This document shows positions 2,574 through 28,361 of a DNA stretch of 61,990 nucleotides, piece by piece (the stretch's first letter is position 1; each line of letters opens with the position of its first letter). The stretch spans positions 1 through 61,990 of the IMG/VR virus record IMGVR_UViG_3300005537_000027; one strand, written 5' to 3'. Source of the stretch: a virus (Duplodnaviria > Caudoviricetes). The notes below the pieces were generated by a model. The model did not search any database. It had not been told where the DNA came from and saw only the letters and a program-made list of their open reading frames with translations. The translations under genes and the position numbers were made by a program.

Positions 2574-3564
2574 GTCTCCACCAGTCCCTCTACCGAAAGG
2601 TGTGCGCTGGTGCTGTCCCCAGTGCTCCCACCAAAACTACGCACACTGGAGCAATTGTGCCCTGTGCGGTCAGGAGAAGCCCAAAGATGCCAGCCCTCAG
2701 CCAACACCAGTCCGCAACATCTACCAAGGTCTTGCTCATTGGGGACTCCGGAGCCGGCAAGACGGGAGCCCTGGCATCCCTTGCTTCGGCTGGGTTCAAC
2801 CTCCGGATTTTGGACTTGGACTCGGGGCTGGACATCCTGTTCAACCTGCTGAACGATCCGAAGTCGCCCTACACCAAGGACTCGATCTCCCGCGTGCAGT
2901 ACATGACGCTCACCGAGCCGATGAAGGTGGTGGGAGGGAAGCTGGTGCCGGTGAAGGTGGATGTGTGGCAGCGAGCGATGAACCTCTTGTACCACTGGAA
3001 AGAGCCCCCTGCGGTGGACCTCGGGCAGCTCACGAGTTGGACATCTTCGGACGTCCTGGTAATCGACTCCCTGTCCACCTTTTCCACAGCCGCGATGAAC
3101 TTCGTGCTCTCGATGAACGGACGTATCGGGCAGCGGCCGCATCAATCAGACTTCGGCCAAGCCCAGGACCTAGTCGAGGGAGCGTTGCAAATGCTGTTCA
3201 ACGACAATATCAAATGCAACGTGGTTGTGACTGCGCACATTGCCTACATCGGGGAGGAGAATGGACCGACCCGAGGCTATCCGAACGCGCTCGGGAAAGC
3301 GCTGCCTCCCAAAATCGGGCGGTACTTCAATACCATGCTTGGTGTGAAGAGCAGCGGGCAAGGGAGCGCCGTGAAGCGGAAGATCCTGACCAACACCTCG
3401 GGAGTGATCGACCTCAAGAACTCCGCGCCTCTGCGGGTGCCACCGGAGCTTCCGCTGGAAACGGGATTGGCCGAGTACTTCAAACTCGTGCGGGGGACAG
3501 CCCCATCGAGCCCGTCTTCCTCGACCTCGCCCAGCGGCTCCCAAACTACGGCTACGGTCGTTAA
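2548..3564 (+). CDS. RanBP2-type zinc-finger ORF; only the first ~47 aa look genuine, the rest overlaps the ATPase out of frame
   Basis: WCCPQCSHQNYAHWSNCALC matches W-x-C-x2-C-x3-N-x6-C-x2-C; GAGG upstream. Confidence 0.4.
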   Translation: MTWDKPPPKSPPVPLPKGVRWCCPQCSHQNYAHWSNCALCGQEKPKDASPQPTPVRNIYQGLAHWGLRSRQDGSPGIPCFGWVQPPDFGLGLGAGHPVQPAERSEVALHQGLDLPRAVHDAHRADEGGGREAGAGEGGCVAASDEPLVPLERAPCGGPRAAHELDIFGRPGNRLPVHLFHSRDELRALDERTYRAAAASIRLRPSPGPSRGSVANAVQRQYQMQRGCDCAHCLHRGGEWTDPRLSERARESAASQNRAVLQYHAWCEEQRARERREAEDPDQHLGSDRPQELRASAGATGASAGNGIGRVLQTRAGDSPIEPVFLDLAQRLPNYGYGR

Positions 3565-3634
3565 CCCTCAGGCCGGAATGCCCGTCACCCTTCTGGGAGG
3601 CACGAATGTCAAAGCGCCGACCCTGGCATCATAG
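2687..3634 (+). CDS. AAA_24 family P-loop NTPase (Sak4-like recombination protein)
   Basis: Walker A GDSGAGKT, LDLDSG, Walker B VLVIDSLS, VVVTAH; AGGAG before ATG 2687; flanked by exonuclease and SSB-like genes. Confidence 0.85.
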   Translation: MPALSQHQSATSTKVLLIGDSGAGKTGALASLASAGFNLRILDLDSGLDILFNLLNDPKSPYTKDSISRVQYMTLTEPMKVVGGKLVPVKVDVWQRAMNLLYHWKEPPAVDLGQLTSWTSSDVLVIDSLSTFSTAAMNFVLSMNGRIGQRPHQSDFGQAQDLVEGALQMLFNDNIKCNVVVTAHIAYIGEENGPTRGYPNALGKALPPKIGRYFNTMLGVKSSGQGSAVKRKILTNTSGVIDLKNSAPLRVPPELPLETGLAEYFKLVRGTAPSSPSSSTSPSGSQTTATVVNPQAGMPVTLLGGTNVKAPTLAS

Positions 3635-3774
3635 CCTTCCCACTCCCCTCACCCTGGGGCAAGCAGAGCAGCTGGAGTGGCCCAACACCCAGTTCCTAAC
3701 CCCAGCCATCTTTTTACTCCACGACCCAGAAAGGAGCATCACCAAACTCAAACTCTCACCCAAGGAACCAGATC

Positions 3775-4287
3775 ATGGCCAAGTCAAAGCAACAGACCCA
3801 GCCAGCTCAACCAACCCAACCCAACCCACCGAAAGCACAACCAACCATGAGTGACTCCTCCGCTACCGACTTCCGCGCCCTGCTCTCCAAGCCCACGGAG
3901 ACCATCGAGCGGCCGAAGGCCCTTCCGGTCGGCACGTACCTGGGGACTATCTCCAAGTACGAGTACGGCAAGTCGGCCCAGAAGAAGACCCCCTACGTCC
4001 GGTATTTTATCTCCCTCACGGGAGCGGGCGAGGACGTTGACCCTGACGCGATGGAGGGCGTGGACCTCTCCAAGAAGCAGATGCGCAAGGACTACTACCT
4101 GACCGACGACGCCCAGTACCGGGTGAAGGAACTCTGGGAGTCCTGCGGCATCGACGGCACGGGACGCTCGCTCGGCGAGATCCTGCCCGACCTCGTCGGG
4201 ATGCCCGTGATGCTGGAGGTGACCAAGCGCAACTCCGAAGACGGCAAGGATGAGTTCAACGACGTCGGCACTGTCCGGGGTCAGTGA
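3775..4287 (+). CDS. putative ssDNA-binding protein (DUF669-like)
   Basis: PKALPVGTYLGTI...KSAQKKTPYV pattern, beta-rich; follows the AAA_24 gene. Alternative start at 3847. Confidence 0.7.
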   Translation: MAKSKQQTQPAQPTQPNPPKAQPTMSDSSATDFRALLSKPTETIERPKALPVGTYLGTISKYEYGKSAQKKTPYVRYFISLTGAGEDVDPDAMEGVDLSKKQMRKDYYLTDDAQYRVKELWESCGIDGTGRSLGEILPDLVGMPVMLEVTKRNSEDGKDEFNDVGTVRGQ

Positions 4288-4292
4288 GAAGG

Positions 4293-4318
4293 AGAGGGGG
4301 TGAAAGCCCCCTCTTTTC
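4293..4318 (+). terminator. rho-independent terminator-like hairpin
   Basis: AGAGGGGG-tgaaag-CCCCCTCT-TTTC just after the SSB-like stop. Confidence 0.65.
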
Positions 4319-4321
4319 ACC

Positions 4322-4429
4322 ATGGCTTGGTTCTTGATGGCGATCCTGATTATGGCAGTTCTCTACATCTTCCTCTGCCTGGGGGATGATGATGACTTCG
4401 GAGATGATGAAGGAGATTGGCCCCAGTGA
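4322..4429 (+). CDS. small single-pass membrane protein with acidic tail
   Basis: Translated by hand: MAWFLMAILIMAVLYIFLCLGDDDDFGDDEGDWPQ*; GTGA overlap with the next ORF. Confidence 0.5.
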   Translation: MAWFLMAILIMAVLYIFLCLGDDDDFGDDEGDWPQ

Positions 4430-4791
4430 CTTCGGTGCATGAACTGCTGTTGGAACTCAATCGGACCTATACCGAAATTCACGAGTTGCGTAGTGCCTTG
4501 GCTGATGCTCTTGTGACTTTCGATATGGGAGCTGAGCACGCCACCAAGTATCACCTCCGCTACTCTGCTGTCATCCACCGCGCAAGGCTGGAGAACCCGA
4601 ATGCTGACAAACGACTTTCAGTTGGTGCCCCTGGCAGCCATTGTTGTGAACCGAGCGGAACGCCAGCGCCGGAAGGTGGACACGACGGGACTGAGGGACT
4701 CGATCCAGCGCAACGGCCTCATCAACCCGATAGTGGTGACGAGGGAGATGGTGCTGGTGGCGGGGGAGCGGAGACTGACGGCGTGCACTGA
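4426..4791 (+). CDS. hypothetical protein
   Basis: AAGGAG upstream of GTG; the 3' half overlaps the ParB-MTase gene. Confidence 0.35.
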   Translation: MTSVHELLLELNRTYTEIHELRSALADALVTFDMGAEHATKYHLRYSAVIHRARLENPNADKRLSVGAPGSHCCEPSGTPAPEGGHDGTEGLDPAQRPHQPDSGDEGDGAGGGGAETDGVH

Positions 4792-16632: not shown

Positions 16633-17424
16633 TTAATACGGGTTAGCACCCATGCCAATTCCAGCCAAAGCGTCGATCGCGGAGCCACCACTGGAAGGCG
16701 CGGTGGCCGGACCGAAGAGTGCGTTGTAACCGGAGCTAATCGCGTTGCCGAGGAACCCGCCGCCGGAGAGCGAGCTACCCGCCCCATTCGGGCTCATAGC
16801 CGCGCCCATCAGCCCCGCCGCTCCCGTAACGCCACCTGCGAAGGAGTTTGCTCCCATCGCATTATACGCACCGCTCAGCCCCGCGCCCTGCATACCCCAG
16901 CCGCCCATCGTGGACCCTGCGCCGACTTCCTGGTTGCCCTGCTGCAGCGCGCCCTGGAGTCCCGTCGTGGCCATACCGGTGAGCATGTTGTAGCCCTGGA
17001 GGTTCTGGGCCATGTAGTTCTGGAGCTGCTGGTTGTAGGTCTGGTCAGCAAGCCCAGTGGCGTACTGGTCCCCGGCCTGGATCGCCGCACCGCTCACCCC
17101 CAGTCCCCTGGCCGTCTGGCTATTCTGCGTGGCCTTGAGACCCTGGTTGAGAGTGAACTGGTAGCCGGGTGTCTGGGTCAAGTCCCCCGGTGTGAAGGGC
17201 TTGATGTAACTCTGGAGGTTCTGGGCGAGCGGCGCCAGAGCCTTGTTGAAGGTGCCGATATACGGGTTGGTGTTCGAGTTCGCTAGGTCGAGTTGGCTCT
17301 GCAGCTCCTTCGTCCAAGTCCCGACCGCGTTGTTGGCGATGCCCTGCGAACCGCTAGAGCCTCCGCCCGCAAGCGCTCCGCCAACGATGCTGCCAACAGC
17401 GCCGATTGCTGCACCCCAGGGCAT
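16633..17424 (-). CDS. DNA transfer/pilot protein (P22 gp7-like)
   Basis: Gly/Ala N-terminus; TPGYQFTLNQGL.A.QNS..ARG..SGA motif. Confidence 0.8.
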   Translation of the reverse strand: MPWGAAIGAVGSIVGGALAGGGSSGSQGIANNAVGTWTKELQSQLDLANSNTNPYIGTFNKALAPLAQNLQSYIKPFTPGDLTQTPGYQFTLNQGLKATQNSQTARGLGVSGAAIQAGDQYATGLADQTYNQQLQNYMAQNLQGYNMLTGMATTGLQGALQQGNQEVGAGSTMGGWGMQGAGLSGAYNAMGANSFAGGVTGAAGLMGAAMSPNGAGSSLSGGGFLGNAISSGYNALFGPATAPSSGGSAIDALAGIGMGANPY

Positions 17425-17777
17425 CACACGTCTCCTATGATCTGGTGTTCTTCCAGGACCTCAACGACAGGCCCGTGAGTCAGGTTATGGATGCAATAAA
17501 GCACAGTGTTGTCTTCGAGGGTCTTGAACAGGTGCTTGGTGCCTTTGGCGATGAGCACCGGGTGCGGGGCTGCGAACGTTCCGATGGACTCTCCATCCAC
17601 CCAGATCTCGACACTCCCAGCCGCTACCAGCGTGGTGTGGTCGTACTTATGGGAGTGCTGCGGTAGCAACGTCCCAGCGTACTTGACCGACATCTGCTTG
17701 ATGAAGACCTCATCAGCAGTCCGGAAGTCCACCTCAACCGTGGCGTCAGAGGGAAGTTTCACGTACTCTATCATCAT
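17424..17777 (-). CDS. cupin-domain protein
   Basis: PQHSHKYDHTTLVAAGSV...I.KGTKHLF...YCIH. Confidence 0.8.
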   Translation of the reverse strand: MMIEYVKLPSDATVEVDFRTADEVFIKQMSVKYAGTLLPQHSHKYDHTTLVAAGSVEIWVDGESIGTFAAPHPVLIAKGTKHLFKTLEDNTVLYCIHNLTHGPVVEVLEEHQIIGDV

Positions 17778-18310
17778 TCCACTCGCATACAAACGATCAG
17801 GGTGATCCGGTCGACAGCCCCAGCGTTGTGCACTGAGTGAACCTTAAGGTTGTCAAAGTACCAAGCCTCACCAGCCCGCATGTTCACCTGCTCGTCTTCG
17901 CAGCAGTTCACACAATGCTCATTGCTCTGGATCGGCACATAGACCTTGACGTTGAGGTTCTCGGCGTGCCAAGTCCCCTTATCGTCATGGGGGAGAATTT
18001 CACCCCCTGGCGGTATCCGAGTGATGAGCACCCCACCCAGGAACGTCGCTCCCACATGCTGCATCAACCCAAACACCAGCGGGCGCAACGCCGGCAGAAT
18101 ATGCCACGCTTCCAGCCACCCGGGGAAAAATGGCTGCGCTCCACGCTCACCCTCTTTCCACCTCACCCAGATATCATCCATGGCGCTGTGGGGAGAGCCC
18201 TCCGCATCCTTACGCGCACGGTGGGCGTTCCAGAGTTGTGGGTTCAACATCAGCTGGAACCGCAGGGGCTCCACGTTAATGCCTGAAAGCAACTGATGGA
18301 AGTTACGCAT
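17774..18310 (-). CDS. aspartyl/asparaginyl beta-hydroxylase-like 2OG-Fe(II) oxygenase
   Basis: ITRIPPGGEILPHDD (HxD), GEAWYFDNLKVHSVHN...RITLI. Confidence 0.85.
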   Translation of the reverse strand: MRNFHQLLSGINVEPLRFQLMLNPQLWNAHRARKDAEGSPHSAMDDIWVRWKEGERGAQPFFPGWLEAWHILPALRPLVFGLMQHVGATFLGGVLITRIPPGGEILPHDDKGTWHAENLNVKVYVPIQSNEHCVNCCEDEQVNMRAGEAWYFDNLKVHSVHNAGAVDRITLIVCMRVE

Positions 18311-18404
18311 TACCGAGTTCTCCTCAGCGGAAGGGTAACACCGTCCCGCCAGCAATCAACCCACCACGACACACGCCCCACCCAAGCTGTGGTCCCAGAT
18401 CCCC

Positions 18405-19007
18405 TTAAGCGCCAATCAGCCCGTGAGTGGTGAGGTCAACCTCCAACGCCGCCAAGCGCGTGCTCAGCACTTGGATCTGGGTGACAAGGGCCTGGACTTC
18501 AGCCTGGGTAGGAGGGTTGGAGATGGACTGAGTCCACGAGGCGTTGAAGGTGCCACGAGAAGGGCTGCCGGTGGGAGCGGTCCAACCGGTCTGCCGTGCT
18601 CCCACCACCTTGTTCGCACCCACATCTACCTCGGTTACGAGGATGGCAGTGCTGGGCTGGAGGAAATCCCCCGTGTTGTTGAGGGCTGCGCTGCCCAGAC
18701 CCAGGTTCGCCCGAGCCGTGCTGGGGCTCGGGATGTCGTCCAGGTTCTTCGCCCGCAGCAACGCGAGGGAACTTGCCGCGAGGGCCGCATCCGCACTGGC
18801 CTGGGCTGCCGCTGCCGCAGCCTTTGCCGCTGCCGCCGAGTCAACCGCGCTTTGCGTAACCACCCCCAGCGACTGCCCAGTGCGTATCCACAGCGCCCGC
18901 ATGAGAGCATACCACCCGCTGGTGATTTTACCGTCGCTGAGAGCAACAAGCGGCGAGTCCGCACTGGGAAGCCCCTGGAGGGCAGCACTGGAAACTGGAT
19001 TGGCCAT
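18405..19007 (-). CDS. tail needle/fibre-like protein
   Basis: Coiled coil, NL.D....ARANLGLG fibre repeat, KVVGARQTGWTA C-terminal motif; follows the gp10-like gene. Confidence 0.65.
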   Translation of the reverse strand: MANPVSSAALQGLPSADSPLVALSDGKITSGWYALMRALWIRTGQSLGVVTQSAVDSAAAAKAAAAAAQASADAALAASSLALLRAKNLDDIPSPSTARANLGLGSAALNNTGDFLQPSTAILVTEVDVGANKVVGARQTGWTAPTGSPSRGTFNASWTQSISNPPTQAEVQALVTQIQVLSTRLAALEVDLTTHGLIGA

Positions 19008-19016
19008 GGGGGACTC

Positions 19017-20306
19017 CTAGGTCTTCGAGGGTGTGATATCGATCCAGGCCCCCTGGAGAGCGGTAGGACCTGCATTCCAACTCAGCTCATACACCCGATC
19101 CCTGGCCATACCCAGGCGACGCCACTGGATCGATGTGTAGTAGTTGCCGTTGTCCCCCATCGTCTGTGGAACGTACGGACCCCAGGTAGCACCTCTGGTG
19201 TCACTCCAGCGCAATTGCACATTCTGACCGCTTGGAGCATCGCCAACCTGCAAGTCCGCCACAAAGCGGTTGTGGACAAGGCGGTGGGCCTCGTCGAGCA
19301 GATGAGGAAACGAGCGGAGGAACTTCATCGGCCCGCCGAAGTCCGTCTGCACCGTAGGGTCAAGCGCGTAGAGGTTCGCGTTCTCCCAGTCCCCCACCAC
19401 GACCTTGCCGTAAGCGAACGCGCAGCAGTTCATCCGATGCCGATGCTCCACCCCGTTGCCATCCAACCAGCATCGCTCGTGCCAAAACCCAGTGGTCGCG
19501 TCGTAAACCCAGGTCTTGTCCGCAGTCGGGAAGGTCAACACATAGAACCCATGGCCTTCCTGCTGGTAAAACATCCCAATCGCATCGGAGATGGTGGAGT
19601 ACCCGCTGATAGCGGTTTCGATGGCGTGGGTGCTGATGCGGGAGGCAGTGAAGTTCGCTCCGGTGCCTTCCAGCACCATAGCAGTGCCATTGAGGTTCTG
19701 GCTGAGCCAGAAAACCGACTCACCACCCTTGGCCACCGAGTATTTCGCTGCACACCCATGGTTCAGGAAGTTCCCTTGCACCCGCTCGAACGGGAACGTG
19801 CCACCCGACTGCCCACCCGAGTTAAAGAAGAACTCCGTGGTGTATCTGCCGAAGAGCCAGATGAACGAATGGATGACCGAGAGCGTTACAATGCTGTCCG
19901 CGTAGGTCTCCTTGCCGGCGAAGTCCAACGCCCCGAATGTGGTGGCCTCGCTCCCAGAGCAGTAAAACAATGGGGTATTGGGCTTGTTCAGGATGAGAAA
20001 GGTATCCATGAAATCAGCCTTGTCCGCCCCGTAAAACCCAGTTTCATCCGGGTTTGCACTGGTGGGATCGATCTGAGTCATGGTGTTGGTGTTGAGGTCC
20101 ACCAACCACCCGTTGGCACTCCCATCCACCAGAATGAGCGTCACCCCGTTGTCGGCCATGCTTACCGGGGTGGTGCCTCCAGGAATGCTCCCCAGCGCGG
20201 TGAACGTCCAAGTCGCATCCACCCAATAGAGGGTGTTGGTGTCCACAGCATAGAGCACGCCCGTAGAGGCTGTGTAGAGTCCGCGCATGGGGCCATTTCT
20301 GGGCAT
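19017..20306 (-). CDS. P22 gp10-like tail hub / DNA stabilisation protein lacking its usual N-terminal ~50 aa
   Basis: GPMRGL, SMADNG, GCAAKYSVA, RISTHAIE, YQQEGH.FYVL.FPTADKTWVYD, LRWSD.RG.TW, WRRLGMARDRVYEL. Confidence 0.88.
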   Translation of the reverse strand: MPRNGPMRGLYTASTGVLYAVDTNTLYWVDATWTFTALGSIPGGTTPVSMADNGVTLILVDGSANGWLVDLNTNTMTQIDPTSANPDETGFYGADKADFMDTFLILNKPNTPLFYCSGSEATTFGALDFAGKETYADSIVTLSVIHSFIWLFGRYTTEFFFNSGGQSGGTFPFERVQGNFLNHGCAAKYSVAKGGESVFWLSQNLNGTAMVLEGTGANFTASRISTHAIETAISGYSTISDAIGMFYQQEGHGFYVLTFPTADKTWVYDATTGFWHERCWLDGNGVEHRHRMNCCAFAYGKVVVGDWENANLYALDPTVQTDFGGPMKFLRSFPHLLDEAHRLVHNRFVADLQVGDAPSGQNVQLRWSDTRGATWGPYVPQTMGDNGNYYTSIQWRRLGMARDRVYELSWNAGPTALQGAWIDITPSKT

Positions 20307-20313
20307 TTCATCC

Positions 20314-21984
20314 TCACGGGAGAGTAATGGTGCTGTAGGTGCTCATGTAGACATAGGTGTACGTTCCACCCACAGCTACACCATACATATTCAAGTACCC
20401 CGTCACAGGGTCAATCCAGAAAATCTGCTCGTTGTCATCGTAGAAGTGTAGAGCGGTGGGATCGAGGTCCTTGTATTGGTAGACCCAGCAACCCCCAGCC
20501 ACACCCTGGACGAACTTCTCAAGTCCCGGATAATACACAAACGGACGAAGAGCCTGATACTTCGCGGTTGTCAGGGAAAGCCCGGTGATGGACTCCATCC
20601 CATTCATAGTCATTCCCACTACCCAAGTCCCATCCCCGACATTCTTGAGCAGCCCAGGCTTGGGCATATATGCGTCGTAAGTGGCGCCTGCAGTGTGGGT
20701 GCGGATGTTGCTGTACTCATCGGTAAAAGGAAGCACCGAGGCACCAGTACCATCCACCCAGTTCGCATTATCCACAGTATACATCGGGGTTGCAGTCGCC
20801 CCAGCGATGTTGGTCCACTGCACCAAGCCCAGTTGGATTTTCAGCATCGCCCCCAGCGGGTAAGTGGGCTGGAGGATCGCTGCCTCTGGGTTGCTATTGC
20901 TAAGCCCCTGCTGTGCCCAATCCATCTCCAGCCGATTGAGATAGATATAGAGATTGGTGTGGTTGTTCGGCCCTGGCAGGCAAAAGCCCCCCTGCGTGTT
21001 GGGGTTGCCTTCGGACTGCCCACCAGTCTGCAAGAAGAAGTTGGTGGAGAGATTGAGCGTACCAATCGGATAGTATGTCTGGTTGTTGATGAGTCCAGGA
21101 GTAGTAATCGGCTGGATTGCCCCGAATGAGTCCAGGTTATAGGTCTTGCCGATGATCTGGTCCACCGATGGGAGGACCGTGATCTCGGAATGAGTCCCAG
21201 CAACAGCAAACGCCCCGATGTAGAGTATCGGATCGCTAGTGGACTGCCCACCGGCCACCGTGACCTTGTTCAAGCGCCCGAGATACGGGCTGTTGAGCAG
21301 TCCGCTGAAATACACTCCCGCAACAAATGTCGGGCGTCCAGTGGGATTGGGTCGCAGCAAGCACCACCAGTAGTTGAAGGAGGAAGAACTCCCCTCTGGC
21401 TGGAAATGTGCCAACAAGTACTGTCCGCCGCAGATCGGCGCGACGTAGAGCACGTTCCCATAGTTAGCGGCGTAAATGGGCGGAGCACTCCATTCCGAAG
21501 CCAACCACGAGTTAATCATCGTGACCAGATCCGAGATCTGGATATTCCACAGCAGCGCCCCATCACTCGGCCTGAACCCATATGCCTGATAGCCTGGGAA
21601 TGAGTTCAGCACCAAGTTTCCATACATATCAGGCTCAGACGCATGGGCATCTGGGTAGTTCCCAGTCAGATAGGTGTTCTTCCACTTGAACTGGCTGATG
21701 CACGCACCAAGCGAAACCCCACGCGAAAGCTCCACATCCGAGGTCGGGAAGAACTTCGCATGGAGGGGCTTGATCGTACCGCCAAGGTTAACCAACCCCG
21801 GAGTCGGATAATACGTATAGCTCTCCTTGGGCAAGAACCCAGTGATGACATTCGCACTCTGCTGGTCCTGCTGCTCCCCCTGCATCCGTGGCATCGCCTC
21901 AGCGTAGAGGTTGAGACACCTCTGCACCCCAGCAATAAGGCTCTGGGCCTGATAACTCCCACCTCGGAGATAAACCTTACTCAC
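20314..21984 (-). CDS. virion protein: gp10-like N-terminal segment plus unknown beta-rich domain
   Basis: Begins GGSYQAQSLIAGVQRCLNLY...YYPTPGL; the remainder is Tyr/Gly/Asn-rich. Confidence 0.7.
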   Translation of the reverse strand: MSKVYLRGGSYQAQSLIAGVQRCLNLYAEAMPRMQGEQQDQQSANVITGFLPKESYTYYPTPGLVNLGGTIKPLHAKFFPTSDVELSRGVSLGACISQFKWKNTYLTGNYPDAHASEPDMYGNLVLNSFPGYQAYGFRPSDGALLWNIQISDLVTMINSWLASEWSAPPIYAANYGNVLYVAPICGGQYLLAHFQPEGSSSSFNYWWCLLRPNPTGRPTFVAGVYFSGLLNSPYLGRLNKVTVAGGQSTSDPILYIGAFAVAGTHSEITVLPSVDQIIGKTYNLDSFGAIQPITTPGLINNQTYYPIGTLNLSTNFFLQTGGQSEGNPNTQGGFCLPGPNNHTNLYIYLNRLEMDWAQQGLSNSNPEAAILQPTYPLGAMLKIQLGLVQWTNIAGATATPMYTVDNANWVDGTGASVLPFTDEYSNIRTHTAGATYDAYMPKPGLLKNVGDGTWVVGMTMNGMESITGLSLTTAKYQALRPFVYYPGLEKFVQGVAGGCWVYQYKDLDPTALHFYDDNEQIFWIDPVTGYLNMYGVAVGGTYTYVYMSTYSTITLP

Positions 21985-24014
21985 GGCAGCAAGCCTCCCA
22001 GTGGGTTATTGGTGGGGAAGTTAGCGCGCACAGTCGCATCATCGATGTTGTAGCTGCGCTGCCCAGTCCTCGGATCGTAAGTAGCGTTGCCGGTCCAAGT
22101 GATGCTCGTGCACCTCGCGTGGAGTACCGCCGTGTTGTACTGGAGCCAGTTCGTGGTGCCGCTGGTGCTGGTGGACTTATTGTTGGTGAAGGTGCAGTTG
22201 TTGCTGTCCACACAGCAGATGTCCCCACGCTCCGTTCCGGTGAGGTTCTGGTCCTGCATGTTGTTGTATGCAGTGTTATTGGTGACAGTGCAGTTCCGAG
22301 ATTGAAAAATATGCACTCCTCGGCCGCCGTTGGTGTAGCAGGTATTGTTGTGGATGAGGCCCTGGTAAGGGTACGCAACTCCCTTCTGATAGGGGTTGTT
22401 GCCCTGCGACCCCAGCCAGTCATCCATAATGATGCCGTTGCCATCAGTATGCCCCGAGCCCGGAACTCCATACTCCCCGTTGTTGTAGCAGATATTGTTC
22501 TGGACGATGATGTGGTAGGTGGCAGCGAGGTCCGCCGCGGATGGAGTATACGCAGTCGCACCAGGCTCGTAGATGCTGATACCCGAGGTCTGGAAGGTGT
22601 TGTAAACTGCGTTGTTGTAGCAGATATTCCCATCCAGCGTGTACCAGTCCTTGAAGAGCGCGCCGATCCCATTGCCGCCGCAGTCATGGCACTTGTTATT
22701 GAGGGCGTTGTTGTGGTGGCCCTGGAAATAGATCCCGTTCTCAGTGGTAAGGGGAGAAGTCCGACCGGCGTTACCTCCGTCGACCTCAAACCCATCCAGC
22801 ATAATGTAATTGCCAGTGACCACAATGATGGACTGCGCGCCGGTGTTCACCCGGATGACAGCACCGAAGGGCGTCGTGCTCCGGTAGACCACATACCCCG
22901 TGAGGCTGTTGGTGTTGCCGCCCGCTGTGAGCCCGTAGCCGGTGGTAAAGTACACCCCTGGCGCCACGTTGACCACGTCGCCGGCCTGGAGCTTTCCACT
23001 ATTATTGGCGCCCTGGATCGTAGCCCACGGCAGAGTCTGGGTCCCAGTCCCGCTTGTATCGCTGCCGTTGGTGGCAACGTACCAGTTCCGCACAGCGGTA
23101 TAATACCCAGTCCCGGCCCCATTGGGGGTAAGCGTAGCGCCAAGCTTCGAGGTCGGCGAGATCGTCGCTGCCATCCTTCCCAGCGAGTGCAGCGTACCGG
23201 CTTGGGCGCTCTTCGGAACCACAGCGGCACTGAGCTGCCGTTTCCTCCCCACAGCCACCGCCTGAGCACTCCTCGGCACAAGCGCAGCACTGGCCGGACG
23301 CTTCCGCCCGAGAGTACCCGCAACCGCACTCGTCGGGACAATGGCCCCACCATTCAGGTGCGAGTTAAGGGCTGTTGCCGCCAGGGCACTCGTCGATGCC
23401 ACCGCTTCCGCCAGCGGCCGTGCCCGGTGGGAGGTGGCCGCTTGTGCACTGGTCGGAGCAATCGCCCACGTGAGGGCTCCCTTCTTGTGCATAATAGCAA
23501 CTAGGTGAGACATTGGAAGGAGTCCTTCTGCAATGTGCCCAGCTGCCAGGATGTCACCAATCGCCCCAACTTGGAACGAACTCGGGCTGATGTCCTCGCT
23601 CAGTGGGCGGGAGCGCGCAAGAGTGCCACTGAGCGCACTCACCGGGTTGATGTTCTCCAGTAGGTTTTTTCCGAGCGCAGGGCTCCAAACACTCGTCATG
23701 TTGTAGTTGATGACAAGTGGACGCAAGCGCCGTAGCGTCGCGACCAGAGTACTTTTGGGTGCCCACGAGATGGAAAGGGCCGCAGGCCTCCAGCGCACCA
23801 ACGCCGCGTTCACCTGCGACGTAGGCTTGAACCCCATCGACATGGCCTGAAACGGGGTGCTCAGCGGCACCAGTCCCGGTGCAGGCAAATGTATCGCCGG
23901 ACTCGGTTCCCCTTGCTCCAGTGGCGTCCGCTGGAGAAACAGGTTCAAGCACCGCTGAGCGCTCGCAATGACGCTCCGTGCTTGATACGTGCCTCCTAGC
24001 AGATTGATCTTCAT
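21981..24014 (-). CDS. tail fibre/spike: gp10-like N-terminal segment, ~20-aa repeat stalk, right-handed beta-helix
   Basis: GGTYQARSVIASAQRCLNLF...PAPGL; PxS repeats; YVATNGSD..GT...PWATIQ and NN.CY.N parallel beta-helix repeats. Confidence 0.8.
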   Translation of the reverse strand: MKINLLGGTYQARSVIASAQRCLNLFLQRTPLEQGEPSPAIHLPAPGLVPLSTPFQAMSMGFKPTSQVNAALVRWRPAALSISWAPKSTLVATLRRLRPLVINYNMTSVWSPALGKNLLENINPVSALSGTLARSRPLSEDISPSSFQVGAIGDILAAGHIAEGLLPMSHLVAIMHKKGALTWAIAPTSAQAATSHRARPLAEAVASTSALAATALNSHLNGGAIVPTSAVAGTLGRKRPASAALVPRSAQAVAVGRKRQLSAAVVPKSAQAGTLHSLGRMAATISPTSKLGATLTPNGAGTGYYTAVRNWYVATNGSDTSGTGTQTLPWATIQGANNSGKLQAGDVVNVAPGVYFTTGYGLTAGGNTNSLTGYVVYRSTTPFGAVIRVNTGAQSIIVVTGNYIMLDGFEVDGGNAGRTSPLTTENGIYFQGHHNNALNNKCHDCGGNGIGALFKDWYTLDGNICYNNAVYNTFQTSGISIYEPGATAYTPSAADLAATYHIIVQNNICYNNGEYGVPGSGHTDGNGIIMDDWLGSQGNNPYQKGVAYPYQGLIHNNTCYTNGGRGVHIFQSRNCTVTNNTAYNNMQDQNLTGTERGDICCVDSNNCTFTNNKSTSTSGTTNWLQYNTAVLHARCTSITWTGNATYDPRTGQRSYNIDDATVRANFPTNNPLGGLLP

Positions 24015-24827
24015 TCAGTCCACCATTGTAAGCGAAGGGCGCCTGCGAGAACCCATGACAACTGGCGAGCCCACTGTCGAGGTGGGGGTGATGTTCGCGC
24101 TAAGGCCCTTGAGTCGAACTTGAGCCACAGCCAAAACCGAACGCGGAGCGATCGCACACACCAAGGTCCGATTGCGCAGCTGCGCGGAAAGTATACTGGT
24201 ATTCGGTCCAATGTTGATGTAGAGGCCTTTGTGTTGGCCTGCCCCCAGGAGCGAGGTTGGGGTCATCGCCACACTAAGGGCTCGGTATCTCTGCACCGTC
24301 ACCGCCAGGACGCTGGTGGGAGTGGGAGTCCAGATAATCGTCCGGCCCTTGGTAATCCCATCCACAAGCGCAATGTGCGAGGCCAATGCAGCGGTCAGTG
24401 GAATGTTCCTGGAGAGACCCCCTACCAGCAAACTCGTTGGGTTAAACGCCGGTGCAAGTGCTCGGGACCTTGTTAGTGCAGCGGCTAGTACGCTCGTCGG
24501 CGCAATTGCCTCAGCAAGAACATGCGTGCCTTTGAGCGTAGCGGCCAGTGCACTCGACGGGACAATGGACTCTTGAAGCGCCCGTCCCCGAGCGATACTC
24601 GCCGCAACCACACTGGTCGGCGCAATCGCCCCGCTGACCGCTCTTGCCCCATGCAGCGCAAGCGCCAGCACACTGCTCGGTGCCAGCGTCGCCGTGAGTG
24701 CCCTCGCTACCCCGCCAGTGTCCGCCAAATACGCAGCGTTTGGCAGCAAATACTGCTGGTCTTCGTTGTTCTCAGTAACGTACGCCACACCACCTGGAGT
24801 GGGAATGGCATATTGCTTATTCCCCAT
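24015..24827 (-). CDS. fibre-like protein with ~20-aa tandem repeats
   Basis: About 11 repeats of R-A-L-x3-[IL]-x-P-[TS]-S-[VA]-L-A. Confidence 0.7.
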   Translation of the reverse strand: MGNKQYAIPTPGGVAYVTENNEDQQYLLPNAAYLADTGGVARALTATLAPSSVLALALHGARAVSGAIAPTSVVAASIARGRALQESIVPSSALAATLKGTHVLAEAIAPTSVLAAALTRSRALAPAFNPTSLLVGGLSRNIPLTAALASHIALVDGITKGRTIIWTPTPTSVLAVTVQRYRALSVAMTPTSLLGAGQHKGLYINIGPNTSILSAQLRNRTLVCAIAPRSVLAVAQVRLKGLSANITPTSTVGSPVVMGSRRRPSLTMVD

Positions 24828-24836
24828 GTCCCCCTC

Positions 24837-26375
24837 CTAGGTCAGCGTGATGAGGGGATCCACGTAAACTGTGGTCGAGGCCTTGGCTACTTTCACCTGC
24901 GCCCGCACCAACCCAGCAAGCTGTGCGGTGAAACTCACCGTCAGTTTCTGTGTGACCGGCGTCGCGGGCGAACTATCCCAACCAGCCGCCGAGCTTGTCT
25001 GGGCTGCGTGCGTGGTCAAACGAGTGGTGATAGTGTTGTTCACAAACGAAGCGATGGGAGTACTCGAACTCCCCAGATAGTCCACTTCCACCCAGATATC
25101 ATCATTATTCAGCGTGCCGCTGCTAATAAACTCAATCGTGAGGGTCTTGGAACTCCCAGTGGTGGGGTTCCAGATAAACAGTGGGAAGCACTCAAACGGG
25201 TTGTTGATACTGGCGTTAGCGGTCGTCACGACCTTGTGCGAGACCTTTTGCACGCCGTCGCTGGCGCCACCAGTCCTGGTGATGGTGGTCTCAGTCGTCA
25301 GGTCGCCCTGGTAGCGATGGCGCTCATTCCGATAGCCCGTGGCTGCGCTATCACAGTTAACCACATCCAGCTTAAAGTCATCTGGAGCCGTGGGCGAACC
25401 CCCGATGATGCTCAGGGTCGCCGACAGCTTACAATTCGAGAGCGTGGCCATAAAGATGCTCGAAATACCCGCACCCAGTATCGTCTTACCCGAGGTCAGA
25501 GAACTGAAGTCAAACCCTCTAGCATCAAGCGCCCCCAGCATATTAGTGCTGGTAATCAGCGTTGTTGGGATCGTTGCACCGCTAACCGAGCCCCCAACCA
25601 GAGTTACATACGCATCCAGGATCTGGATAAAGTGACCAACTGCAGCGAACTGAAACGTCGGATTGTCCAGGACAATTTTCGAGACATTCGTCTGGCCAAA
25701 GACAATACTCATAGCTCCAGTCCCACCCAGGACGAAGGAGCAGTTTTTCATGTAGTACGAGTTGGCAGAGCCAGACCCAACGTTCAAGTTCCCATTTGCG
25801 TCCGATCCGGTTCCTCTCGTAAACGTAAACCCTTGCCAAAACCCTCCACCAGCAACCCCAAGCGCCACGATGCCGCTGCTCGTAACATTCGCAGCCGCAC
25901 CATTGGTGATGTCTCCCGCAGCAGGCGGGATGCTCCCGGTGGTTCGGTTGACCGAGAAGAAGCTGGAAAGCACCCCAGGGCTCGTGAGCGTGAGGCTACC
26001 AGTGGTGGTCTGCGTGTGGTCGCTGGAGACAAAGCCTCGGTCTCCGTTCGCCATCCACGAGCACATGTTTTGGATGAGCGCGTGAGGAGCGGTCCAAGTG
26101 TTGGTCACGCCCCCATTCTGCTGCTGCCCGGAGTTACCCGTGCACTCAGTCCAGGTCACGCCCGAGTCCGTGGTCGTCCCAGCTTTGGTCAGCGTCCAGG
26201 TCGGCTCGGTGCCCCCACTAACTCCAGTCGTAATCGCGCTTACACGAAAGCACCGCTCGTTCCCAACAGTGGGCGTAGCCAGCTGGCGCACGATCGCACC
26301 AACCGCATAGGTATGGCTCGCCGCCCATTGCGCAACCGCCGTATACGCAACACTTGAGCAGTACCAGTCCGCCAT
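24837..26375 (-). CDS. tail/fibre-associated structural protein
   Basis: WAASHTYAVG...G.SG.TEPTW...TTDSGVTW motif; Thr/Ser/Gly-rich. Confidence 0.7.
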   Translation of the reverse strand: MADWYCSSVAYTAVAQWAASHTYAVGAIVRQLATPTVGNERCFRVSAITTGVSGGTEPTWTLTKAGTTTDSGVTWTECTGNSGQQQNGGVTNTWTAPHALIQNMCSWMANGDRGFVSSDHTQTTTGSLTLTSPGVLSSFFSVNRTTGSIPPAAGDITNGAAANVTSSGIVALGVAGGGFWQGFTFTRGTGSDANGNLNVGSGSANSYYMKNCSFVLGGTGAMSIVFGQTNVSKIVLDNPTFQFAAVGHFIQILDAYVTLVGGSVSGATIPTTLITSTNMLGALDARGFDFSSLTSGKTILGAGISSIFMATLSNCKLSATLSIIGGSPTAPDDFKLDVVNCDSAATGYRNERHRYQGDLTTETTITRTGGASDGVQKVSHKVVTTANASINNPFECFPLFIWNPTTGSSKTLTIEFISSGTLNNDDIWVEVDYLGSSSTPIASFVNNTITTRLTTHAAQTSSAAGWDSSPATPVTQKLTVSFTAQLAGLVRAQVKVAKASTTVYVDPLITLT

Positions 26376-26858
26376 TTACTGGCCTCGCTGAGTTAGGCCG
26401 CTGAGAAGGAGTGTGGATTGAGCGTTGAGGGTGTTGCGGAGGGCAGTCAGCTCGCTCGAAGGCGAGGCATAGCCGAACGCCAGGGCCAAGTCCGCATCCG
26501 CAAGTGCCGACAGATACTCGCCCAGCAAGACCGCCGTCAGTGCCGTCGCCCCAGCATACGTTGTGCGAACCTCCGCGTTCACCGCCGCCTGGGTCGTGTA
26601 CTGCAGCGTCACCACTGGAGGATAAACCGTGGAGATCTGCCCGATGTTTGCCTGGAGTTCCGCAGCCGGAAGGCTCTGCTCCAGCGCTGCAGCATTTGCT
26701 GCCAATATCGCGTTGTAGTCCGCCCCGCTGTCAGCCAAATACGTGACCGAATGCACCACCCCAACCAAGTCAGTGTGATGTTCAGTCACGTATTTCCGGC
26801 CGTCAACCTGCGTGCCGCCCACATCAGCGATGGTGGAGGAGACTATGATCCCAGTCAT
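26376..26858 (-). CDS. hypothetical virion-associated protein
   Basis: RBS GGAG; abuts the next gene. Confidence 0.6.
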   Translation of the reverse strand: MTGIIVSSTIADVGGTQVDGRKYVTEHHTDLVGVVHSVTYLADSGADYNAILAANAAALEQSLPAAELQANIGQISTVYPPVVTLQYTTQAAVNAEVRTTYAGATALTAVLLGEYLSALADADLALAFGYASPSSELTALRNTLNAQSTLLLSGLTQRGQ

Positions 26859-26883: not shown

Positions 26884-27273
26884 TTAGGTCAGCGTGATGG
26901 TGAGAGCGCCGATGGCGATCGTGGCAGTGTCACCGACCGAATACGCCACGCTGCTGGCAACCGTGCCCTGAGCCAGACACGTGCCGGTGGTGAGGCTGTC
27001 CCAGATCGTGATGTCCGTGACCGTGCCCCAGTTGCTGGTGGTATCCGGACCGAACGACAGCGCACCGGAGTTGCTCGCCACATTACCGCTGACGGTGAAC
27101 GTGACCGCCTGCCGAGCATACCCGTTGCCGCTGATCTCATTCGAGGCACCCGCACCACCGTTCGCGCCGGTGTGCAGAGCCACATACCAAGTGGTCGGGC
27201 GCGTCGGGCTGGAAGTGGTGAAAATCCAGTTCAGCACCCGGTTTTCCGCAGTCGCAGTGAAAGTCCCAGCCAT
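26884..27273 (-). CDS. minor structural protein
   Basis: ENRVLN...WYVALHT...EISGNGYARQAV...WGTVT..IWDS.T.G motif, common in phage tail modules. Confidence 0.75.
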   Translation of the reverse strand: MAGTFTATAENRVLNWIFTTSSPTRPTTWYVALHTGANGGAGASNEISGNGYARQAVTFTVSGNVASNSGALSFGPDTTSNWGTVTDITIWDSLTTGTCLAQGTVASSVAYSVGDTATIAIGALTITLT

Positions 27274-27284
27274 AGTTAACTCCC

Positions 27285-28361
27285 TTAGGAAGTACGCAAC
27301 CCGAGCAAGGTCACGTAAGCGTTAGTCGGAGCGCCGACCACGGTGTCGATTACCAGGGTGATAACCGCCCCAGTGCTAACGTTCGTGAAGGGTCCAGCAC
27401 TGGGATAGAGCTGGGCTGCAGCGTTGCCGGTGATCGGGACCGAGGACAGCCCACCCACCAACTGCCCGTTGATGAGGATGCTGGCGTTGAAGCTACCGCC
27501 CGCGTCACCCCCATAGATCTCAGCACCCGTGACGGTGAACTGGTATGGGGCACTGCCCAGCAGCGTGTAGGTCCCCGACGTAACCAGCGCACCACCGGCC
27601 CAGTTCTCCGTAATGGCCACTCCCGCAGGGCTCGTGCCACCTCCGAAGAGGCCCTGACCGAAAGAGCCCTTGCCCACACCCGGCAGACCGGGGGGCATCT
27701 GGAGGCGTGCCAACTGCAGGTCCGCGCCTCGGATCACGTTCAGGGCGTCCGTACAGAGCGCGTTCAGTTCCGGGTCTGGGGGAAGCTGATAGCTGACTCG
27801 CAACCTCCGTGCGAGGTTGAAGTAGAGCGCAGCGTAGTATTCCTCCGGCAGCGAAATCACATCGTTGGCCGTGGCGAACTGCTGCAGCGCATCCTTCACC
27901 GCAAGGTGGATCTCGAACTGCCCAGACCCCGGCGTAGGGGTGAACCACAAGGTCCCCAGGGGGTAGCCCGGATCGTAAAACACCGTCTGTGGGAAGGAGT
28001 TATACTGCTTGAGCACGATGTTATTATAGGTCTCGCGAGCATCAATAATCTCCAGCCCATAGTCCGCCCGGAGTTGAATGCTCGTAACCAGCTGTCGCAC
28101 AAAGGCACTTTCCAGCCGGTCAGGACGAAAGGGGATGTTGAAATCCCCTCCCGGCCCGATCGTGTACGAGGTATTGCCATTTGCCGTAAGCGCAAGGTCC
28201 ACCAGATGATACACCAACCACCGCTTACGCCGCCACTGGGAGAGCATCCAGTTCAGCTGCGTCAGCGCATCGTTGGTGTCATCCGGGAGTGCCGTTTGGC
28301 CGACGCCCAGCACACCAGCCGTCTTGAGCGCCATTGTGATGATATCGCCGGCCACTGGCAT
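27285..28361 (-). CDS. head-tail adaptor (P22 gp4-like) with C-terminal beta-sandwich extension
   Basis: DII..ALK.AGVLGVGQT...DAL..LN.ML.QW; LPEEY.AAL.FNLA.RL; an extra ~110 aa after a Gly-rich linker. Confidence 0.8.
   Translation of the reverse strand: MPVAGDIITMALKTAGVLGVGQTALPDDTNDALTQLNWMLSQWRRKRWLVYHLVDLALTANGNTSYTIGPGGDFNIPFRPDRLESAFVRQLVTSIQLRADYGLEIIDARETYNNIVLKQYNSFPQTVFYDPGYPLGTLWFTPTPGSGQFEIHLAVKDALQQFATANDVISLPEEYYAALYFNLARRLRVSYQLPPDPELNALCTDALNVIRGADLQLARLQMPPGLPGVGKGSFGQGLFGGGTSPAGVAITENWAGGALVTSGTYTLLGSAPYQFTVTGAEIYGGDAGGSFNASILINGQLVGGLSSVPITGNAAAQLYPSAGPFTNVSTGAVITLVIDTVVGAPTNAYVTLLGLRTS

Follow-up and report, generated by a model that had tools for sequence, protein, structure and literature searches.

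Tail hub locus

The window (the whole stretch of DNA that was analysed, 61,990 nucleotides (nt) long) is the virus record IMGVR_UViG_3300005537_000027 of IMG/VR, rated complete by CheckV, and carries on its minus strand a group of genes identified by sequence as the tail module of a podophage. The subject of this report is the tail hub, or nozzle, of that module: the hub gene lacks the N-terminal leader found in other hubs of its family, and a leader of this kind heads each of the two genes immediately upstream. The hub body (429 amino acids (aa); 19017-20306) starts MPRNGPMRGLYTAS and comprises a predicted beta-propeller and a C-terminal extension. Ahead of it lies the gene for a 556-aa appendage protein (20314-21984), which opens with a GTG start and reads MSKVYLRGGSYQAQSLIAGVQRCLNLYAE...YYPTPGL; its leader consists of residues 1-68 (21781-21984). 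The next gene upstream encodes a 677-aa protein (21981-24014; MKINLLGGTYQARSVIASAQRCLNLFLQ...HLPAPGL) made up of a leader (residues 1-55; 23850-24014), a rope-like stalk of ~12 units of ~20 aa (23115-23834) and a C-terminal right-handed beta-helix (21981-23102).

The tail genes are tightly coupled, with junctions that read TGAATG, GTGA (where the stop codon of the 677-aa gene overlaps the GTG of the 556-aa gene) and TGA followed by GAGGA-N4-ATG. The last of these joins the 556-aa gene to the hub (20311-20316): the TGA (20314-20316) overlaps the GAGGA (20311-20315), 4 nt follow, and the hub ATG stands at 20306. From the coordinates, the hub frame is +1 relative to the 556-aa open reading frame (ORF). 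A Shine-Dalgarno motif at tight spacing is present at each junction of the leader genes and the hub. The order of the module, all on the minus strand, is adaptor, gp80-like protein, 160-aa, 512-aa and 270-aa repeat proteins, 677-aa protein, 556-aa protein, hub and needle-like protein.

Family and fold of the short hub

A reading of the letters and ORFs of the window without database searches (the sequence-only reading) had described the 429-aa protein as a gp10-like hub without its leader, and profile searches bear this out. Residues 5-426 match phrog_578 (head closure Hc3) at positions 58-471 of 486 (E 9.8e-93), and residues 15-344 match PF11134 at positions 57-389 of 469 with 23.4 bits, below the 25-bit cut-off. 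The AlphaFold2 (AF2) model of the hub (predicted local distance difference test (pLDDT) 88.7) was matched by Foldseek to P22 gp10 (8eap_D; E 1.9e-24, template modelling (TM) score 0.73) and Sf6 (7sg7_S; E 1.4e-22), with further matches to Pan3 (9vyg_M) and Pam1 (7eeq_1). A profile of 32 full-length hub homologues matches the same Pan3 and Pam1 chains, together with 8tvr_S (P22 gp10; E 2e-8) and 7sg7_T (Sf6 gp8; E 1.7e-7). By homology and predicted fold, the protein is assigned to the P22 gp10/Sf6 gp8 family of hubs with a beta-propeller fold.

The family match begins at position 58 (57 in PF11134), so that the short hub is without the N-terminal extension in the same chain, and no in-frame start codon was found further upstream of the hub ATG. 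In full-length hubs (470-490 aa), the leader immediately precedes '..VRGLY..'. A second, full-length hub gene was found neither elsewhere in the window's genome nor in that of a close relative, L011, described below. The ratio of nonsynonymous to synonymous substitution rates (dN/dS) of the hub is 0.05-0.13. The hub stands downstream of an adaptor gene (PF24175) and directly upstream of a needle-like gene (phrog_1219).

Leaders of the two upstream proteins

That both upstream ORFs (starting at 24014 and 21984) open with the leader was confirmed by alignment and, for the 677-aa protein, by profile: residues 2-53 of its first 70 aa match phrog_578 at positions 5-54 (E 0.011). The two leaders align with each other (32/83 identities, E 1e-11) and, column for column, with the N-termini of full-length hubs. 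Invariant in the leaders and in functional hubs alike are L5, G8, Y10, A12, S14, Q20, R21, N24, L25, P44 and G47 (numbering of the 677-aa protein). The similarity between leaders and hubs breaks right after 'PGLxxL', at the point where 'MPRNGPMRGLY' of the short hub replaces the canonical '..GPVRGLY'.

A search of 5.8 billion proteins with the leader of the 677-aa protein gave 25 matches, namely 23 PF11134 hubs, a near-identical copy (P0125) and an orthologue (P0126); identity to the N-termini of the PF11134 hubs reaches 71%. Among 50,697 phage records this leader was matched at three places only, all of them hub N-termini, and in the deposited phages phiAX1 and PAE2 the leader and the hub body lie in one gene. 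Judged by these alignments, the ~55-residue segment missing from the hub is the piece that heads the 677-aa and 556-aa proteins.

Split and fused relatives

L011 is a 58,393-nt record with direct terminal repeats, 100% complete and syntenic with the window. Its module encodes a 509-aa protein, a 252-aa repeat protein, an 854-aa protein with leader, rope and beta-helix, a 426-aa protein with a leader and a different body, a short hub of 430 aa and the needle protein; exactly two copies of the leader are present in the genome. A third instance of the split is suggested by P0126 (763 aa; leader, rope and beta-helix), P0122 (552 aa; of the 556-aa type) and P0002 (a short hub) taken together, the longest contig being 9,628 nt for each. 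Relatives with the same architecture have hubs 70-74% identical to that of the window.

A natural fused form was found in L014, a metagenome contig of the Joint Genome Institute (JGI). Here one ORF of 933 aa comprises a leader of the type found in the 556-aa protein, an unrelated insert of ~440 aa, '...VVMPRSGPVRGLY...' and the hub body; upstream of it is a rope/beta-helix gene, truncated at the 5' end by the end of the contig. The hub bodies of L014 and L011 are identical at 392/429 positions (91%), with a synonymous divergence (dS) of 1.26, so that split and fused forms coexist among close relatives. At L014 3363-3378, an AGGAG-N6-ATG is kept within the fused frame, exactly where the split relatives start the hub, and internal initiation at this site could give both fused and free hub bodies. 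The fusion is Rosetta-stone evidence for contact between the 556-type protein and the hub.

The leaders fall into two classes. The rope type, which resembles the leaders of canonical hubs, is present in the 677-aa protein of the window, the 854-aa protein of L011, P0126 and P0177. The insert type is found in the 556-aa protein of the window, P0122-P0124, the 426-aa protein of L011, P0150, P0151 and the 933-aa protein of L014, and is recognised by the signature GGSY.sQSLIA..QR.LN.YAE and an extra loop of 12-15 aa. Every phage seen whole has one leader of each class. Synonymous sites of the leaders are saturated, yet 36/55 residues are identical in the rope type (window and L011) and 45/65 in the insert type (L011 and L014). 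The insert-type leader of L014 is 72% identical to that of L011, and the bodies behind the two share nothing; a conserved leader in front of unrelated bodies is what one would expect of receptor-binding modules that are exchanged on a constant anchor.

Rarity survey

The frequency of the split was surveyed in the best 80 of 117 hub loci from species-representative bacterial and archaeal genomes, with flanks reaching 8 kb at most; as positive controls, the same script was run on the window, L011 and L014. Three of the 80 hubs are cut at the N-terminus by contig ends. In each of the remaining 77, leader region and hub body lie in one ORF (profile start no later than position 12 of 474), and 70 of the 77 are matched by a leader-only hidden Markov model (HMM) as well. 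No separate leader ORF was found in the flanks of the surveyed loci. The sequence-only reading had named homologous hubs that naturally lack the leader as one case that would overturn it, and none was seen among the 77 intact hubs.

Only two of the 120 most similar hub proteins share the start point of the hub of the window, P0002 (428 aa, 73% identity) and P0003 (430 aa, 70%). The most closely related full-length hubs are in Burkholderia, Ralstonia, Paraburkholderia and Acetobacteraceae genomes, a hint at where prophages or hosts may be sought. The short hubs P0055, P0068, P0078, P0089, P0097, P0096 and P0116 were considered as further splits and rejected as truncated calls, as they start inside the propeller or without Met; P0067 (421 aa, start MSTWRGLY) may be another split. 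On this sequence evidence, the split arrangement is judged to be real and rare.

Docking model

A complex of the hub body (37-row alignment) with residues 1-58 of the 677-aa protein (18 rows) was modelled alongside three controls. The interaction prediction scores from aligned errors (ipSAE) were 0.88, 0.90 and 0.90 for the leader on the hub body, as against 0.00 for the best of the three controls; the mark applied to this score is reached by 58/80 solved complexes and by 2/110 mismatched pairs. The runs share at least 82% of their contacts (199-214 contacts), with a partner pLDDT of at least 65. In the modelled interface, residues 18-29 and 39-55 of the leader face residues 267-336 of the hub and its C-terminal residues 405-425. 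This fits the description of the Sf6 structure, in which N- and C-terminal extensions join into the apical domain. Co-folding had been named in the sequence-only reading as a check on its proposal, and for the leader of the 677-aa protein the outcome was favourable; the model supports docking of this leader rather than demonstrating it.

Bodies of the two leader proteins

Residues 64-300 of the 677-aa protein consist of ~12 units of the 20-aa motif xPxSxLxAxLxRxRxL.... The same motif recurs in the adjacent 270-aa repeat protein (24015-24827), which is without a leader and has ~11 exact 20-aa repeats over residues 50-270, with P-x-S anchors at residues 50, 70, 90, 110, 130, 170, 190, 228 and 248. 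Self-identity at lag 20 is 26.8% for the stalk of the 677-aa protein and 26% for the 270-aa protein; the maximum at any lag is 11.7% in the beta-helix part and 8.5% in the 556-aa protein. The beta-helix matches PF13229 (E 2.5e-7; 30.9 bits against a 25.9-bit cut-off) and is predicted to form a tip resembling a glycan depolymerase.

In phages GP4 and A1002, a 'rope' carries dimers of gp80-type fibre protein, which it binds by beta-augmentation, according to the A1002 paper (PMC13730344). A gp80-like gene (PF23140) is present as a single copy in the genome of the window and in that of L011. By analogy, the stalk of the 677-aa protein may be a rope that carries gp80-like fibre dimers with the enzyme tip at its end, and the gp80-like monomer is presumed to be the cargo of such ropes. 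The sequence-only reading had described a repeat stalk fused to a beta-helix; the beta-helix stands as described, and the stalk is reinterpreted here as a rope. The 270-aa protein, whose 49-aa N-terminus is conserved with the 252-aa homologue of L011, is a candidate for a separate, separately anchored rope protein of the GP4 type.

A repeat protein also accompanies the gp80-like gene in an independent phage, Octadecabacter virus DB2, where a protein with 22-aa repeats is encoded three genes downstream of it. This protein, gp11 of Octadecabacter Antarctic DB virus 2 (L098 7065-8591), is annotated as 'ribonuclease E' and consists mostly of ~9 repeats of 22 aa (25% self-identity at lag 22), the gp80-like gene being gp8, three genes upstream; it is probably a fibre rope and not a ribonuclease.

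The other leader protein had been described in the sequence-only reading as a leader on a body of unknown fold, and this description stands: the 556-aa protein has no match in Pfam or PHROG, and an Atlas search with its body returned nothing above 0.81. The AF2 model, built from 4 sequences, has a pLDDT of 34 and is unusable. All three homologues (48, 48 and 39% identity) keep the leader. The protein is probably a receptor-binding module with a variable body.

Neighbouring genes

The GP4 gp80-like fibre monomer (129 aa; 26884-27273) matches PF23140 with E 2.8e-32 and the PDB chain 8jou_a with E 7.5e-5. The neighbouring 160-aa ORF (26376-26858), considered as a second gp80-like fibre, showed no BLASTP similarity and no Pfam or PHROG match, and PF23140 detects a single gene in each genome; as the two fibre proteins of A1002 share only 16% identity (PMC13730344), it may nonetheless be one. 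The 512-aa protein (24837-26375) matches the head-decoration family phrog_20658 with its N-terminal residues 15-76 (E 2.8e-6) and has a homologue in L011 at 3141-4670.

The head-to-tail adaptor (358 aa; 27285-28361; PF24175 SU10_adaptor, E 3.5e-7; phrog_637 Ad3, E 5.2e-11) is the expected docking partner of the apical domain of the hub. Its family matches stop near residue 230 and leave a C-terminal extension of ~130 aa beside the platform of the hub. The needle-like protein directly after the hub (200 aa; 18405-19007) matches phrog_1219 (tail needle; E 2.1e-20). Between its gene and those of the presumed ejection proteins lie, on the minus strand, genes for an aspartyl/asparaginyl beta-hydroxylase-like protein (17774-18355; PF05118, E 1.9e-11) and a small cupin (17424-17792). 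Homologues occupy the corresponding position in L011 (11323-11859) and in L014 (5411-5944). A hydroxylase of the tail module might modify some virion protein.

Other leader proteins and modified hubs

A profile of three insert-type leaders was searched against 1.84 billion representative proteins (E <= 0.001), and the presence of a hub body was judged with a local whole-hub HMM. Of 106 matches, 12 have a length of 300 aa or more and match the leader only, and in all 12 the similarity stops just after 'PGL'. Two of them, P0121 and P0125, are proteins of the window itself or near-identical copies of these, and the other ten are not from this phage: P0122, P0124, P0150 and P0151 are of the insert type, P0177 is of the rope type, and P0200, P0206, P0225, P0245 and P0247 have canonical-looking leaders on unrelated bodies, among which a Gly-rich region, a Rax2-like beta-propeller and weak NHL and immunoglobulin (Ig)-like matches were noted. 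Six further leader-only matches are shorter than 300 aa and may be fragments. Viral contigs searched for the contexts of P0245, P0247 and P0200 yielded nothing useful. The five proteins with canonical-looking leaders, known from their sequences, are regarded as leads and not as proof.

Two other departures from the canonical hub were noted in the course of the searches. P0132, P0136, P0142, P0144, P0158, P0192, P0199 and P0201 are hubs of 700-1,550 aa with large insertions after the leader, in the propeller or before the last strands; to go by these, the hub family often serves as a display scaffold. At L019, L033, L064 and L075, the hub ORF called by the first-start rule runs 136-204 residues upstream of the leader, and these extensions may be over-called starts or real N-terminal fusions.

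A leader probably acting in trans

It is considered likely, from sequence and models, that the leader acts in trans and that the hub of this phage is built from separately encoded pieces. This had been the central proposal of the sequence-only reading. It draws support from the leader being exactly the piece that the hub lacks, from the joint conservation of the genes, the L014 fusion, the swapping of bodies behind a conserved leader, the docking model of the leader of the 677-aa protein and the structure of Sf6. On this proposal, the 429-aa gene would supply the beta-propeller body and the C-terminal half of the apical 'platform' domain, and the N-terminal half (~55 residues) would be supplied in trans by the two appendage proteins translated just upstream, both of which probably plug into the hub through the leader as part of its fold. 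One would be a protein of the 'nozzle-rope' kind (677 aa), with a leader, ~12 repeats that each probably hold a gp80-like dimer and a beta-helix enzyme tip; the other (556 aa) would place its variable body, probably a receptor-binding module, behind its leader. Each leader would pack on a single hub subunit, against its blades 5-6 and C-terminal extension. In doing so it would complete the domain that wedges between adaptor subunits, and hub assembly and appendage attachment would become one step. We infer that this complementation takes place in the virion, and that the virion most likely mixes both appendages, because the hub has six subunits and the leaders come in two kinds.

Several observations weigh against this proposal. 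No match to phrog_578 at E <= 10 was obtained with the N-terminal 70 aa of the 556-aa protein, nor any among PDB chains and PHROGs with the rope-like stalk. The docking model covers the leader of the 677-aa protein, the link of the 556-aa leader to the hub being provided by the L014 fusion, and the docking score, obtained with our own alignments, may partly reflect memory of, or likeness to, solved full-length hubs. The co-location of P0002, P0122 and P0126 is read from their equal figure of 9,628 nt. There is one leader slot per hub subunit, yet there are two leader proteins; and the L014 hub may carry the leader in cis while a rope protein, its N-terminus off the contig, is also present. From the number of slots and from L014, there may be a second docking site or a competition between the leaders.

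Such a division of roles is the substance of a first alternative, in which only the insert-type leader, as the ancestral N-terminus of the hub, completes it, and the rope-type leader binds elsewhere (at six free adaptor-adaptor interfaces or on a neighbouring subunit) or competes. It would account for L014 having fused the insert-type leader, not the rope-type one, to the hub body, and for the two classes being distinct and each conserved, with the 12-15-aa loop and the GGSY.sQSLIA signature confined to the insert type; it also suits Sf6, where six hubs face twelve adaptors, one hub to two, by the structure description. It is nevertheless thought unlikely: of the two classes, the rope-type leader comes nearer to the leaders of canonical hubs (up to 71% identity), it docks in the model with an ipSAE of 0.90 as against 0.00 for the controls, and L014 keeps its AGGAG-N6-ATG before the hub body, so that free bodies could arise. 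A different possibility is that the hub is not truly split, the 556-aa ORF and the hub being joined in translation by programmed frameshifting or stop bypass. The distance between stop and ATG is 7 nt, the hub frame is open for 12 codons upstream, and the fused ORF exists in L014. The frame offset, however, varies (by the coordinates, it is +1 for the window but +2 for L011), every hub comes with a Shine-Dalgarno motif, an ATG and a conserved MPR.GP start of its own, and no slippery motif is visible at CTC CCG TGA. Such joining would also leave the second leader on the 677-aa protein unexplained, and it is held to be very improbable.

Little credence is given to the view that the leaders are inert scars of cassette exchange, left before imported fibre genes by recombination at the conserved 5' end of the hub gene, and that the short hub works without one. 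The 12/106 profile matches of at least 300 aa with unrelated bodies in place of a hub body would fit frequent recombination at this boundary. Both leader classes are nevertheless kept at the protein level despite saturated synonymous sites, their invariant residues are identical to those of functional hubs, and the leader always stands at the very N-terminus behind a good ribosome-binding site; because 77/77 intact surveyed hubs keep it, the leader does not appear to be dispensable. Misassembly, which the sequence-only reading had proposed to check by reads across the junctions, or a recent pseudogene, is scarcely credible. The window is a metagenomic contig, and the one DNA sequencing run found to hold the stretch, labelled as soil metagenome, may be its own source sample. 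Logan contigs of this run nevertheless bridge all three junctions with 0 differences at a depth of ~7.8, a near-identical second record exists (P0125 differs by one residue, G to V, and P0121 lies on a 33,178-nt contig), and the same architecture recurs in relatives with hubs 70-74% identical.

The reading in which the leader acts in trans can be extended further, to a degree that is possible but doubtful. The ~55-residue leader would then be a portable plug that wires diverse receptor-binding modules into the hub fold in this lineage and possibly in many others, and the hub of this clade could not finish its adaptor-binding domain without the plug. Two paralogous plugs would share six slots, alternating 3+3 or at random, and give mosaic tails set by translation ratios; the fused, split and re-initiated forms would be states of one adjustable system. 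If leaders do act in trans, fibre attachment in these podophages would be the completion of the hub's own fold, not surface binding, and hub assembly would be coupled to the modules that determine host range. The ~55-residue leader would then offer a handle for grafting receptor-binding domains in laboratory phage engineering, and would help to annotate otherwise 'hypothetical' receptor-binding proteins in metagenomes.

Comparison with known systems

The short hub resembles the canonical hubs P22 gp10, Sf6 gp8, Pam1 gp8 and that of Pan3 in family and fold match and in the position of its gene upstream of the needle gene in the tail module. In Sf6, according to the structure description, the first and sixth blades have N- and C-terminal extensions that together make an apical domain, which fits in between two adaptor subunits. 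An adaptor-binding apical domain made from both extensions would be a feature shared with the present hub. The canonical hubs have the N-terminal extension in cis, whereas here it lies off the hub polypeptide. The tailspikes of P22 and Sf6 attach by an unrelated head-binding domain of their own, not by a piece of the hub.

In T7, fibres of the gp17 type have a conserved N-terminal anchor on swappable receptor-binding proteins. Tailspikes of Przondovirus are likewise described, in the part of the source available, as receptor-binding proteins that are exchanged behind a conserved N-terminal anchor domain (PMC12692247). The likeness lies in a short conserved N-terminal module before unrelated C-terminal bodies; the difference is that the anchor here would be a piece of the hub fold itself and not an adaptor-binding domain in its own right.

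The chain-like fibre of Ralstonia phage GP4 reportedly consists of gp80 dimers on a separately encoded rope protein. These fibres dock on the capsid, as stated in the available part of the A1002 paper (PMC13730344). So far as GP4 is described there, it resembles the present phage in its gp80-like monomer, and the separate 270-aa repeat protein could be a rope of the GP4 type; it differs in that a second putative rope is here fused to a hub leader and an enzyme domain.

The closest system found in the literature on split nozzles and chain-like podophage fibres, supplementary material being outside the search, is the split nozzle of Pseudomonas podophage A1002 (PLoS Biol, November 2026; PMC13730344), which was compared by its published description; no A1002 record came up among the matches in the phage collection. 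According to that paper, the nozzle-rope protein gp39 completes a truncated nozzle-base, gp42, by added beta-strands and carries fibre dimers; a fibre-dock domain ~270 residues long holds 11 of them, at about 20-25 aa per site, and the arrangement is attributed to modular evolution (PMC13730344). By this account, the two phages have in common a truncated nozzle, missing platform or propeller strands on a separate rope-bearing protein, adjacent genes and a spacing per fibre site comparable to the 20-aa repeats found here. In A1002, residues 469-620 at the C-terminal end of gp39 form the complementing piece, and gp42 retains the platform strands at its own N-terminus, whereas here the N-terminal ~55 residues have moved and it is the C-terminal extension that stays on the hub. 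The partner in A1002 is a single protein with an Ig-like rope tip, as against two partners with paralogous leaders and a beta-helix; a fused/split polymorphism is not described in the parts of the A1002 paper covered. The principle of the split nozzle is therefore not new, having first been seen in A1002, and what is added here is the N-terminal topology, the two partners and the fused/split polymorphism. If the leaders act as proposed, the present hub would be the second natural split nozzle, topologically opposite to that of A1002, with two features of its own: two competing or co-operating partners, and a fused/split polymorphism among relatives with 91% identical hubs.

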